This document shows positions 26,395 through 52,603 of a stretch of DNA of 64,000 nucleotides, piece after piece. Each line of letters begins with the position of its first letter. Position 1 is the first letter of the stretch. The position numbers were made by a program, and so were the translations under genes. Source of the stretch: Candidatus Terraquivivens tengchongensis (GTDB lineage: Archaea; Thermoproteota; Nitrososphaeria_A; Caldarchaeales; Wolframiiraptoraceae); NCBI GenBank assembly GCA_023261845.1, contig JALNJZ010000002.1, positions 32,001 through 96,000 on the forward strand, written 5' to 3'. The notes beneath the pieces were generated by a model. That model was not told the origin of the DNA. It did no database searches and was given only the letters and a program-made list of their open reading frames with translations.

Positions 26395-27690
26395 TTAAGC
26401 CTTCTGTGTTATCTCTTTGACGATCCCGGCGGCTATTGTCATACCGCTATCTCTGATTGCGAACCTACCTAACTCGGGAAACTGAGAGTATGGTTCGAGT
26501 GCCGTCGGTTGTAATGGCATAAGTCTCACGAGTGCTATGTCTCCTGTCTTCAGGAACTGGGGGTTCTTTTCTACAACCTGTCCAGTCCTTGGATCCATCT
26601 TTGATATTAGCTCGACAAACTTTACGGCTACTTGTGCTGTATGTATGTGCATGACTGGCGTATAACCAGCCGCTATAGCCGTTGGGTGGTATATCACTAC
26701 TATCTGGCCGATGAACTCCTTCGCTACGCTACATGGATTGTCTGGATGGCTGACAACCATACCTCTTGCAAGTTGTGTTCTTTCTACACCCTTCAGGTTA
26801 AAGCCTATGTTATCGCCAGGAATTGCTTGTTGCAAAGGCTGGTGATGCATCTCTATGCTCTTGACTTCAGCCTTTATGTTGGGTGGCATTATGACAACGG
26901 TATCACCGGGCTTCAGAACACCTGTCTCAACCCTTCCAACAGGTACTGTTCCTACACCTTTAATGGAGTAGACTGCCTGTATCGGTATTCTCAAAGGCTT
27001 GTCGATGGGTTTTGACGGTTCCTGAAACATATCCAGAGCTTCCAGTAAAGTCGGTCCGTTGTACCATGGAAGGTTCTTGCTTCTTTCTACTAAGTTGTCA
27101 CCTAACCATCCAGAGATTGGTATGAAGTGTATCTTAGAGACGTCGTAGCCAACACGTTTTAGCAGGTCCTGTACACCTTGCTTTACCTCATTGTATCTTT
27201 CTTGGGACCAGTTGACAGTACTATCGTCCATCTTGTTGATTGCGACGACCAACTGCCTTATGCCTAGCATGAATGCTAGGAAGGCATGTTCTCTTGTCTG
27301 TCCACCAGGCGCTATTCCTACTTCGTATTCGCCCTTTTTCGCAGAAACGACTAAGATTGCGGCATCGGCTTGACTTGCTCCGGTTATCATGTTTTTTACG
27401 AAGTCCCTGTGACCGGGAGCATCAATCAGCGTGAAATAGTATTTCTTAGTCTCGAATTTTTGGAACGCAAGGTCTATCGTAAGCCCTCTTTCTCGTTCTT
27501 CTTTAATCCTGTCAAGTACCCATGCATACTTGAACGTCTCCTTTCTGAGTTTCTTCGCCTCTTCCTCATATGTCTGGATTGTTCTCTCGTCAATAGCACC
27601 TAGTTTATACAGTAAATGACCCATTGTCGTCGATTTCCCATGGTCTACATGCCCAATGACTATCAGGTTTAGGTGTGGTTTTGTGGACAT
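26395..27690 (-). CDS. tuf: Translation elongation factor EF-1alpha
   Basis: GHVDHGKST, ERERGLTID, DAPGHRDF and NKMD motifs. Confidence 0.98.
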   Translation of the reverse strand: MSTKPHLNLIVIGHVDHGKSTTMGHLLYKLGAIDERTIQTYEEEAKKLRKETFKYAWVLDRIKEERERGLTIDLAFQKFETKKYYFTLIDAPGHRDFVKNMITGASQADAAILVVSAKKGEYEVGIAPGGQTREHAFLAFMLGIRQLVVAINKMDDSTVNWSQERYNEVKQGVQDLLKRVGYDVSKIHFIPISGWLGDNLVERSKNLPWYNGPTLLEALDMFQEPSKPIDKPLRIPIQAVYSIKGVGTVPVGRVETGVLKPGDTVVIMPPNIKAEVKSIEMHHQPLQQAIPGDNIGFNLKGVERTQLARGMVVSHPDNPCSVAKEFIGQIVVIYHPTAIAAGYTPVMHIHTAQVAVKFVELISKMDPRTGQVVEKNPQFLKTGDIALVRLMPLQPTALEPYSQFPELGRFAIRDSGMTIAAGIVKEITQKA

Positions 27691-49842: not shown

Positions 49843-52063
49843 TTATCCCTCTTCCACGAAATCGGATATCTTCGGTATCTCCGGCGGGAGGCCCTTCCTC
49901 TTCCTTATCTCCGCTATGACTTTGTCCCTTATTGACGCTGGAACGGGTTTCCAAGAAGAAAACTCAGTAGCCCAGAAGGCCTTGCCCATCGTCACGCTTC
50001 TCATGACCTCGCTAAGGTCGAAAGTCTCAGCTGCTGGAATCTCACCCTGTATTACTGTTATGTACTCGGCTTGTTTTATGTCCAGCACCTTTCCTCTCTT
50101 GGAGCTTATGACACTGGTTACGGCGCCCATAAATTCGGGCGATACCTTTGCCTCCAGCTTTAGTATGGGTTCAAGCAGCACGGGGTCGGCGCTCAGTATG
50201 CTGGCATAGAGGCTCCTCCATGTCGCCGGCGCTATCTGGGCATAGCCTCTGTGTACAGGGTCCTCATGTAACTCCACGTTAACTAAAACCGCCTTTACTC
50301 CCCTCATAGCTTCGCCGGCGAGCGGACCTTCCGACACTACCCTTTGGAAACCGCCTATTATCATCATCTTGGATTCATGAAGATATTGTGCCCCTTTCGT
50401 CATGTCAACGAGTATGTTGCCTCTGGGGTCGATGCACCAAACGTTCCTAGCTTCTTCTGCATCCCATCCATGGTCCCGCAGTATCTTCGCCACCTGTTTC
50501 CTGTCCATCTCGTCATAAAGCTCACCTGACCTTATCAGCTCTATTACTTCAGGCTCCAACGGTTCTGCCCTAATGTATATCCTATTGTGTTTGTTCGGCG
50601 ATTTACCTTCGAAGACCTTCCCCACTTTCTGGACAGCTTCTCTGTAGAGGATTATCGGTTTGCTTGGGATGACTTCCAGACCTGCCTTCGCTATCCATGT
50701 TAAAGCTATCTCCAGATGTAAAGTACCCATACCGCTTATCAGATACTCACCGGTCTCAGGTCTTACAGTTGTGACTAGCGTTGGGTCTTCTATGCTCAGT
50801 TTATTTAAGAAATCTACCAGCTTTGGTAAATCCTTGCTATGCTTTGGCTCTATCGATATTGTTACGACGGGTTCCGACACGTACTTTAACGTTTCGAACG
50901 GAACCATATCTACGGTTGCAAGCGTATCACCCGCCCTTGCATTTTCTACACCTAAGAGTGCAGGTATGTTACCAGCCGGTAGGCTACCGACTATCTCCCT
51001 TGCGGGACCCATGTATACGGCAACTTGTTGAACTCTTTCTGTTATATTCCTTCCGACCAGCAACAAAGTATTGCCATCACTCACGATACCGCTGAATAGC
51101 CTACCTGTTACCACGACACCGGCTTGTGGATCAACCTTTACGTCAGTTACTGCCATAACCGTAGGACCGTTCTCGTCGCATTCCATCATGGCCCTGCCGA
51201 CGTCGCTATCTAGCGGCCCCTTCCATATCTTCGGTATTCTGTACTTTTGAGCCACGTGCGGAGGCGGATGGTGGTTTATTACCATCTCGAGAATCGCTTC
51301 ATGTAACGGTGCATTTTCTCTGAGCCACTCTATATCGCCCTTCGCAAACGCATTAATTACATCGCTGAACTTTATGCCCTTCTTCTGGGCTTGTTGTAGA
51401 GTGAATCCCCACCTGTCTTTTGCGCTACCTATCGCCACGCTGCCGGCGGCTATACTAACCTTCCACTTATCCCTAAACTCTGGTTCGGCATACATTTCTA
51501 TCAGTCTGTTGATGTCCATTATTATCCTACCCAGCGTCTCCTGGATTCTTTCAGGGGTCAGCTTCAGCTCCTTAACCAGCCTATCGATTTTGTTTATGTA
51601 GAGAACCGGCTTAACCCTTTCTTGCACTGCCTGCCTTATCACGGTCTCCGTCTGCGTCATGACACCCTCAACTGCATCCACCACGACCACCGCGCCGTCT
51701 ATCGCTCTCAGAGCCCTCGTGACCCTTCCAGAGAAGTCAACATGTCCAGGCGTGTCTATGAGATTTATTATGTAAGGCTTTGAGTCCATCTCATAATATA
51801 GGCTGATGTTAGCTGCCTTGATCGTCATCTGACGTTGTTGTTCTTCTTCGAGATAGTCTAAGGCCAATGCCTTCCCAGCTAAAGATGGTGAGAGTAACCC
51901 TGCTGCAGCTAGAAGACTGTCCGTAGTTGTTGTCTTTCCGTGGTCTACTTACCCCCTAAGGATGTTACGGTCCTTAGGTATGGGCTATGATGCCGACGTT
52001 CCTTATACTATCTTTATTTTTCAGAATGTCTACGACTTCGCTGATCTTCTTCACCCTAGGCAT
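49843..52063 (-). CDS. fusA: Translation elongation factor EF-2; two exons (52063-51980 and 51948-49843), 729 aa after joining
   Basis: Exon 1 MPRVKK...IRNVGIIAH joins exon 2 VDHGKTTTTDSLL, followed by DTPGHVDF, NKIDR and the diphthamide-site HEDPVHRG. An AGGTG RBS lies upstream of ATG 52063. Confidence 0.95.
51949..51979 (-). other. 31-nt bulge-helix-bulge intron in the EF-2 coding sequence (predicted)
   Basis: Sense strand: GCCC-AT^A-CCTAAGGA-CCGTAACA-TCCTTAGG-GGGT-AA^G-TA. Removing it restores AHVDHGKT. Confidence 0.88.
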
Positions 52064-52297
52064 TTTCCTTCAACACCTGAGGACTCGTTTAAAATACTGC
52101 CATATATAGTTGCCACCAGCGGACTTTTGTCTTGGAAAGCCATTGTCAGGCTTGTATCAAGCTTTTTAACGGTCTCATAGCTCGTATAATGCCTTATTTT
52201 CAACATTTACTCTAACTCTAAAAGTCAAGGATGCTTTTTAGTTATAAAACTTACTTGCGGTTTAGTTGGAGGGCGCTGAGGGGCGTAAGTGTCGTCT

Positions 52298-52603
52298 TTA
52301 AGCACTCTTTCCAAGTTTTTCCATTACGTCGTTGTATATTTCAGTCCTTGTTCTTCCTTCCGTCGGTACACCTAGCTTCTTCGCCATATCCATAAGCATA
52401 TCAACGTCTTTCTTCAATTCTTGAACGTCTATAGTTGATGCGGCCTGTTCCTTAATTTCCTCTGCCTCTTTCATAGCCTTCTGAAACTCTTTCTTAGCCT
52501 TACCCAACGATCTCGCCAACTCAGGTATCTTGCTCGGACCCCATATGAGGAATATTACTACAAGTATTATAATGATTATCCACTCGATGCCAACTATCGC
52601 CAT
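52298..52603 (-). CDS. tatA: Twin-arginine translocase TatA/E
   Basis: Single N-terminal TM helix and WGPSKIPELARSLGKAKKEF. Confidence 0.9.
   Translation of the reverse strand: MAIVGIEWIIIIILVVIFLIWGPSKIPELARSLGKAKKEFQKAMKEAEEIKEQAASTIDVQELKKDVDMLMDMAKKLGVPTEGRTRTEIYNDVMEKLGKSA

Follow-up and report, generated by a model that had tools for sequence, protein, structure and literature searches.

A putative bulge-helix-bulge intron in the P-loop codons of the single aEF-2 gene of Candidatus Terraquivivens tengchongensis

Introduction

Archaeal tRNA and rRNA introns are reportedly recognized through the motif called bulge-helix-bulge (BHB), consisting of a 4-bp helix and two 3-nt bulges with cuts after bulge base 2, a geometry said to have been set out by Marck and Grosjean in 2003. 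A BHB intron is also said to occur in the cbf5 pre-mRNA of Crenarchaeota, as Watanabe in 2002 and Yoshinari in 2006 are reported to have described. Here we analyzed a stretch of 64,000 nucleotides from the hot-spring archaeon Candidatus Terraquivivens tengchongensis (Caldarchaeales, family Wolframiiraptoraceae; assembly GCA_023261845.1, contig JALNJZ010000002.1, positions 32,001 to 96,000 of the forward strand), referred to below as the window, in which a 31-nt insert interrupts the P-loop codons of the gene for archaeal elongation factor 2 (aEF-2, or EF-2). Positions are counted from the first letter of the window.

The EF-2 element resembles the cbf5 introns in several respects. As described for cbf5 (PMC2738675), it is a short BHB intron, tens of nucleotides long, placed in the most conserved catalytic motif of a coding sequence; the hosts have a hetero-oligomeric splicing endonuclease (EndA), the distribution is patchy and implies gain and loss, and some copies keep the frame yet must be removed. 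Unlike the cbf5 intron, it lies in aEF-2, in phase 0 (between codons) and within the P-loop, its outer helix is 2 bp long versus 8 bp in the cbf5 of this genome, and the splicing of EF-2 is predicted from sequence.

The same motif and the same enzymes, EndA and RtcB, serve the tRNA and rRNA introns, from which the EF-2 intron differs in having an mRNA as host, so that the reading frame and the translation of the unspliced form matter. Another mRNA, that of Haloferax volcanii HVO_1309, carries a BHB intron in its 5' untranslated region and is likewise a substrate of the splicing endonuclease (Schwarz 2020, PMC7714728); unlike in EF-2, that intron lies in an untranslated leader, and the EndA of H. 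volcanii is homodimeric.

Two further systems are similar in part. In HAC1/XBP1 splicing, too, an endonuclease removes a small structured mRNA intron, a tRNA ligase (RtcB in animals) rejoins the ends, and translation is changed; however, the endonuclease is another one (IRE1), the RNA motif is different and the process is demonstrably regulated, so it is not a member of this family. The P-loop inteins of archaeal NTPases, such as that in the EF-2 of a Calditenuis genome (locus L051), are also intervening elements of this invariant motif, and that of Calditenuis sits in EF-2 as well, but they are removed at the protein level, comprise hundreds of residues and are in frame.

In Schwarz 2020 (PMC7714728), cbf5 is given as the sole archaeal coding sequence with a splicing-endonuclease intron, and for mRNA introns the 2025 reference list of PMC12397907 cites only cbf5 papers. 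No report of a BHB intron in EF-2 was found in the literature searched; Tocchini-Valentini 2011, possibly relevant, lies outside that search. A term search of an EF-2 evolution paper (PMC6143161) and of a Wolframiiraptoraceae paper (PMC9246946) gave no mention of an EF-2 BHB intron. The literature search agrees with a preliminary description of this DNA, which had called cbf5 the best-known archaeal mRNA intron and knew of none in EF-2. As a kind, BHB introns within archaeal coding sequences are already known, from cbf5, and the EF-2 intron adds a further member.

Results

An insert in the P-loop codons of aEF-2

On the minus strand, the reading from the ATG at 52063-52061 runs through 28 codons to GGC ATC ATA GCC CAT (GIIAH) and then meets an insert of 31 nt, ACCTAAGGACCGTAACATCCTTAGGGGGTAA (51979-51949), which begins ACC TAA GGA and finishes GGGGGTAA. 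Downstream of the insert, from 51948, the codons GTA GAC CAC GGA AAG (VDHGK) follow, and then TT; 701 aEF-2 codons stand after the insert, with the stop at 49843. Removal of the insert at the canonical cut sites would give GIIAH|VDHGKTT, the same reading as in uninterrupted relatives. The mature message would encode GIIAHVDHGKTT, and the predicted junction peptide is NVGIIAHVDHGK. With high confidence, we regard the 31 nt (51979-51949) as a true archaeal BHB intron within the pre-mRNA of the sole aEF-2 gene; judged from the sequence, the EF-2 message very probably needs cutting and rejoining by the tRNA-splicing enzymes to give a working protein. The features of the locus are as follows.

51980..52063, minus strand: aEF-2 exon 1, ATG plus 27 codons, MPRVKKISEVVDILKNKDSIRNVGIIAH (from translation; peptide conserved in all relatives)
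51949..51979, minus strand: predicted BHB intron of 31 nt, made up of A, CCUAAGGA, the loop CCGUAACA, UCCUUAGG, GGGU and AA
51946..51987, minus strand: whole BHB motif (from the centroid structure and a strict BHB parse)
49843..51948, minus strand: aEF-2 exon 2, VDHGKTTTTDSLL..., 701 codons plus stop (from translation)
52064..52075, minus strand: purine-rich, putative Shine-Dalgarno-like stretch GAAGGAAA, adjoining the ATG upstream (from sequence reading)

Exon 1, 84 nt long, contributes the first half of the G1/P-loop motif, and the flank upstream of it, TGTTGAAGGAAAATGCC, is common to six intron-bearing species. Exon 2 contains the Pfam domains GTP_EFTU, GTP_EFTU_D2, EFG_III, EFG_IV and EFG_C. 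Its GTP_EFTU match opens at profile position 12 of 188, the first 11 positions being exon 1; the frame of exon 2 therefore lacks the start of the G domain. An in-frame TAA is located inside the intron at 51976-51974.

The preliminary description had reported that the open reading frame (ORF) track gives EF-2 without its G1 motif, that the real start is the ATG at 52063, followed by IIAH, a 31-nt insert and VDHGKTT, and that the corresponding motif of EF-1alpha in the window is intact. The coordinates of the start and of the insert agreed with ours letter for letter. The mechanical ORF list indeed gives EF-2 only as a TTG-started fragment of 674 aa without the P-loop (49843..51867), together with a 29-aa ORF (51974..52063) terminated by the TAA that lies two codons inside the insert, and EF-1alpha (about 27328-27525, minus strand) reads IGHVDHGKST without interruption.

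That mechanical ORF calling yields exactly these two pieces would suit a decaying pseudogene, or a gene with two products, namely the peptide of 29 aa and an EF-2 that starts at the TTG at 51867 and has no P-loop. However, EF-2 is present in one copy in the genome assembly (1.22 Mb, 99.4% complete), two further weak matches being other GTPases; a second intact EF-2, which had been named as a refuting case, was not found in it. The 701 codons contain neither stop nor frameshift, in both exons the synonymous changes are far more numerous than the non-synonymous (see below), and the same interruption is kept in six species. In addition, a GTPase without a P-loop cannot bind GTP, which counts against the P-loop-less product. 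Both versions of this explanation are thus extremely improbable.

Predicted fold and cut sites of the insert

We modeled the secondary structure of the insert and its borders, which has the elements of a BHB motif.

51987-51986 with 51947-51946, minus strand: outer pairs UA/UA
51985-51982 with 51954-51951, minus strand: central helix GCCC/GGGU, 4 bp
51981-51979, minus strand: 5' bulge AUA
51978-51971 with 51962-51955, minus strand: inner stem CCUAAGGA/UCCUUAGG, 8 bp
51970-51963, minus strand: loop, 8 nt
51950-51948, minus strand: 3' bulge AAG

The centroid fold reproduced the 4-bp central helix, the AUA bulge and the 8-bp inner stem. The cuts are predicted at 51980|51979 and 51949|51948. Cutting behind the second base of each bulge gives GCC CAT|GTA GAC, that is, AH|VDHGK exactly. 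The fold had been claimed beforehand as GCCC/GGGU with AUA and AAG bulges, an 8-bp inner stem and a 2-bp outer stem, and proved right to the base; the further claim that cuts behind the second bulge base restore A-H-V-D-H-G-K was likewise borne out.

Other identities for the insert were considered and rejected. A search of 51700-52300 against Rfam gave 0 matches at E<=1, and this result together with a length of just 31 nt speaks against a group I or group II intron. An intein does not agree with a length that is not a multiple of 3, nor with stop codons in the insert. A cbf5-type intron, as an identity, is set aside by the host gene, which is aEF-2 and not cbf5.

Conservation of the insert within Terraquivivens

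Of the seven species genomes of the genus, six have the insert at precisely this position, counting the present genome (G000), that is, five of six congeners. In these six species, the 23 structural intron bases and the paired exon bases ATAGCCCAT/GTAG are invariant. The loop occurs in six versions of 7-10 nt (CCGTAACA, TGCTTTAA, TGCCGTAA, CCCATCA, GCATAGCA and GACGCTACAA), and the introns measure 30, 31 or 33 nt. Six metagenome contigs from the Joint Genome Institute (JGI) also carry the insert, repeating three of the loop versions.

Exon 2 is 94-98% identical to that of the congeners, from which it differs by 211-270 synonymous and 12-48 non-synonymous codons (222/12 and 259/41 being examples). 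Per pair of the intron-bearing genomes, it shows 127-270 synonymous versus 8-48 non-synonymous codon differences, with synonymous changes in about 30-37% of its codons among the same intron-bearing genomes, and exon 1 shows 3-9 versus 0-4 (4 and 0 for the pair G000-G002). From these comparisons, both exons are under strong purifying selection with neutral sites well diverged, and the intron is constrained in its structure but not in its loop.

The only congener without the intron is Ca. Terraquivivens tikiterensis (G006; locus L008, contigs C21 and C32). In this genome, exon 2 over its first 300 nt and a 313-nt upstream stretch show 79-85% identity to a Pelearchaeum genome and 71% to the congeners, and the upstream neighbor of Terraquivivens type lies on another contig. 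Either recombination has removed the intron or the contig is a chimera, and in neither case is this a clean intron-less Terraquivivens allele.

Introns at the same site and at a second site in other lineages

Among 76 species genomes of Caldarchaeales, 69 had the N-terminus covered, and 10 of these were interrupted at the site described above (AH|VDHGK, site A), namely the six Terraquivivens and all four genomes of one family (f3). The remaining 59 were uninterrupted by an open-frame proxy, 27 of them having been read directly. The site-A BHB introns of family f3 (33, 33, 33 and 36 nt) have no stem sequence in common with the Terraquivivens intron but agree with it in geometry. Genus g7 has the central helix GCGC/GCGU, the exon Ala codon having changed from GCC to GCG together with the intron strand from GGGU to GCGU. 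One genome assembled from a metagenome (MAG), of Bathyarchaeia (L053), has a 42-nt BHB element at site A with the helix GCCC/GGGC.

A second site (IR|NIG, site B) is located nine codons upstream of site A. Both sites are occupied in one genome (G035, contig C60, family f3), where the locus L036 has two introns, of 30 nt at IR|N and of 33 nt at AH|V. In 16 Bathyarchaeia-type loci (L053-L068), site B alone was occupied in eight (L054-L056, L058, L060 and L065-L067), seven were uninterrupted and one was interrupted at site A. Fifteen further loci (L134-L148), mostly from Bathyarchaeia, were picked from a 401-genome sample of the phylum for an open frame of 714-728 aa; fourteen had site B occupied and the fifteenth was uninterrupted. 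The EF-2 search of this sample covered the best 150 of 425 matches, and the site-B tally is not full. For one of the fourteen site-B loci, the fit requires an A.C mismatch within the inner stem.

All 11 sequences of site A and all 23 of site B have the 4-bp helix and the two 3-nt bulges. At site A, a bulge AUA or AUU is combined with AAG or AGG, whereas at site B the combination is AAA or UAA with ANA. To score pairing, we took as cells the central helix and the first eight inner pairs, and as control slid the 3' partner by 1-2 positions. At site A, 128 of 132 cells were paired in 11 distinct sequences versus 53-70 in the shifted registers, and at site B, 264 of 276 cells in 23 distinct sequences versus 94-164. 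Central pair 3 at site A is C-G in eight sequences and G-C in three; the central helix at site B is UCCG/CGGA or UUCG/CGAA, with one pair changing on both sides (C-G in 15, U-A in eight). On these counts, the helices are supported by covariation between lineages, not within the genus. An alignment of relatives had been proposed as a check on both intron presence and covariation: presence held (six of seven genomes in the genus, four of four in f3), and covariation was found between lineages but not within Terraquivivens.

An in-frame stop was found within 2-6 codons in all 11 site-A introns, including the frame-keeping ones of 30, 33, 36 and 42 nt, which means that none of them can be read through.

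Several other irregularities of EF-2 were noted. The Calditenuis MAG mentioned above (L051, also G060:C23) has a large aEF-2 intein in the P-loop after GK (...VVVHN|TTTTDSLL), with an open frame of 1352 aa; in a sister family, the motif is thus host to an intervening element that acts at the protein level. In families f14 and f18 of the phylum sample, many genomes match the EF-2 query in two pieces (best E about 1e-200 to 1e-220), a hint that additional introns or inteins may interrupt the gene further inside. Public annotations of Bathyarchaeia and Nezhaarchaeales place incomplete GTP-binding or EF-2 proteins in the middle of long contigs, among them P0083 (254 aa, contig of 1.3 Mb) and P0050 (281 aa, contig of 322 kb), as truncation at unrecognized introns would produce.

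A cbf5 intron and splicing enzymes in the same genome

A scan of the genome for other BHB-interrupted coding sequences, as had been suggested, ranked 804 ORF-restoring BHB candidates by energy. The first was an intron in cbf5 and the second was the EF-2 intron (-12.5 kcal/mol); the scan used the strict 4-bp/3-nt geometry, and relaxed motifs would be missed. The cbf5 intron, located outside the window (20 nt, C8:80370-80389, plus strand; locus L114:571-590), forms a canonical BHB with an 8-bp outer helix and an energy of -19.7 kcal/mol. It splits the catalytic Asp codon behind its first letter (GHGGTL-D-PAVSG) and stands between an exon 1 with the DKCLD domain and an exon 2 with TruB_N, TruB_C_2 and PUA. 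The cbf5 intron site given in Yokobori 2009 (PMC2738675) is the same as the one in this genome. The genome thus already uses the mechanism on one mRNA. The candidates ranked next after cbf5 and EF-2 (-10.2 and -9.3 kcal/mol) look like chance, and one of them, C9:58599-58627, has a poor downstream reading.

Two genes match the splicing endonuclease family PF01974, at 105 and 61.5 bits. As read from the sequences, the 189-aa protein has the residues Tyr/His/Lys, which we take to be the motif of the catalytic subunit, and the 183-aa protein is without them. This indicates an EndA of the alpha/beta heteromeric type, with its subunit genes at C2:162594 and C1:8741. RtcB is encoded by one gene (579 bits), and ARAGORN called introns in 12 of 35 tRNAs. 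According to PMC5829648, only (alpha-beta)2 and epsilon2 EndA cut non-canonical introns, and the splicing endonuclease of Caldiarchaeum is reported as heterotetrameric in Nunoura 2010 (PMC3082918).

As a separate observation, strong BHB motifs (-14 to -18 kcal/mol) occur outside the ARAGORN tRNA calls, for example at C12:142205-142226 (plus strand), C9:66632-66654 (plus strand) and C6:20441-20494 (minus strand), and 1 of the 19 best BHB motifs overlaps a called tRNA. Some of these motifs resemble tRNA genes with non-canonical introns missed by ARAGORN, which found 35 tRNAs.

The comparisons above also bear on whether the interruption is dealt with by the ribosome and not by RNA splicing, either through translational bypass, that is, ribosome hopping as in T4 gene 60, or through stop read-through plus a frameshift. 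The hairpin directly after the stop codon is superficially like that of gene 60. However, take-off and landing codons are unmatched (CAU or ACC before the insert versus GUA after it); the inserts of relatives, 30-42 nt long and unrelated in sequence, all conform exactly to the BHB geometry, for which bypass has no need; and the genome demonstrably uses the same geometry in cbf5. Decoding without splicing is therefore very unlikely.

The insert in DNA contigs and in RNA contigs

Three DNA runs, belonging to three studies, have contigs that span the insert site without a gap; the source sample may be included among them. The insert is also carried by five other species assemblies and by the six JGI metagenome contigs, with loop variants, so that the reality of the 31 nt as DNA, which had been put forward for checking, is established. 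An assembly or sequencing artefact could appeal only to the small size of the insert, and given these independent contigs and assemblies its probability is close to nil.

For RNA, we used the contigs of one metatranscriptome run (X15). They cover parts of the window, and none lies over 51842-51977. A contig of 435 letters matches 51979-52384, that is, exon 1 and the region upstream; its 29 further letters are off the window and start within 1 nt of the predicted 5' cut.

Discussion

Several of our results weigh against a BHB intron in the aEF-2 pre-mRNA. The fold energy is ordinary, with a z-score of -1.80 and 8 of 200 shuffles folding at least as well. BHB-like motifs of equal energy are expected by chance about 0.5 times per 120 kb: in a test of that size, the real sequence had 1 equal-energy match and four dinucleotide shuffles had 0, 0, 1 and 1, and in the whole genome a strict BHB scan returned 8323 loose matches, 19 of them reaching the energy of the EF-2 motif. 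The outer helix is only 2 bp long in this gene, and across the 34 EF-2 introns that were parsed it never exceeds 1-2 bp, so the motif is relaxed at its 3' site and would rely on a broad-specificity endonuclease; such a relaxed site fits the broad-specificity type of EndA encoded here. A cut behind the third bulge base would also be in frame, giving AHIDHGK. In the relative L036, a third-base cut would give HFD, which argues against that register; cutting behind bulge base 2 is the known mechanism of the archaeal enzyme, and the register that we chose rests on this mechanism and on L036. The stems never vary within Terraquivivens, so that covariation comes from comparison between lineages, among which homology of the introns is not established.

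Neither spliced RNA nor a circular intron nor a junction peptide was observed, the RNA data being the X15 contigs. The joined form was not found in metagenome contigs, a collection that may hold no transcripts; its 15 matches there were six unspliced Terraquivivens DNAs and nine ungapped, unrelated bacterial GTPases with common P-loop letters. Nor was a Terraquivivens fragment found among short predicted proteins with residues 1-120 of exon 2 as query (best identity 94%).

The structure alone would not carry the claim of an intron. What goes beyond chance is that the cut sites are the exact ends of the insert that breaks the P-loop, together with the conservation in relatives. From the observed structure and frame register, the conservation and covariation, the single selected gene, the enzymes present and the cbf5 intron, we infer cleavage, ligation and an intron circle in the following way. 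The transcript would fold into the BHB, and the heteromeric (alpha/beta) EndA would cut behind the second base of each 3-nt bulge. RtcB would then join ...GCC CAU to GUA GAC..., restoring the P-loop AHVDHGKT, and would close the intron into a 31-nt circle. Full-length, GTP-binding EF-2 would be translatable only after splicing, and ribosomes on unspliced RNA would halt at the TAA two codons into the intron, giving a 29-residue peptide. Given that exon 1 measures only 84 nt, a degree of wasteful translation seems likely.

As to what the intron does, we lean towards an element without a dedicated function, which is tolerated and was possibly once a mobile mini-intron. It would persist because only a base-perfect deletion in the invariant motif is viable. 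The patchy distribution, the unconstrained loop and the other intervening elements in the motif fit a tolerated, selfish or neutral element.

Alternatively, the intron could be real and act as a regulatory checkpoint, at which the capacity of EndA and RtcB throttles EF-2 and ties elongation to the maturation of tRNA and rRNA. The preliminary description had raised such a coupling. A checkpoint of this sort would resemble HAC1/XBP1 splicing, in which an endonuclease together with the tRNA ligase switches on a message. If the intron is real, synthesis of EF-2 necessarily depends on the splicing enzymes; the early in-frame stop in all 11 site-A introns would make the unspliced RNA silent and not the source of a faulty GTPase, and the intron is kept in at least three lineages at one site and in many at the second. 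However, most Caldarchaeales (59 of 69 by the open-frame proxy) do without the intron. The unconstrained loop gives no sign of a ligand or protein site, and the Calditenuis intein in the same P-loop fits a hot spot of selfish elements better than a designed switch. Regulatory coupling is therefore less likely than a tolerated, selfish or neutral intron, and we consider it rather improbable.

On a wider scale, BHB mini-introns in the P-loop region of aEF-2 occur in Caldarchaeales and Bathyarchaeia, at two sites nine codons apart. It is a speculative and, in our judgment, doubtful extension that they form a recurrent class across archaeal phyla which, together with the cbf5 intron, makes up a hidden layer of obligatory mRNA splicing that targets invariant motifs of translation and RNA-processing genes and links tRNA maturation to elongation.

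An intron in aEF-2 would have consequences for annotation and for the biology of these archaea. Gene callers lose exon 1, as in the ORF list of this window, and EF-2, a standard marker for phylogeny and completeness, is therefore wrongly annotated in these genomes as a truncated or partial gene. The specialist interest is clear, and the practical weight lies in annotation. That introns and an intein cluster in one invariant motif is relevant to the way in which these elements are spread and maintained. An intron at this place, the P-loop of an essential translation GTPase encoded by one gene, would bring archaeal mRNA splicing into core translation; such introns are retained in several lineages and occupy two sites. 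If the intron is real, the production of EF-2 presupposes a working EndA and RtcB.

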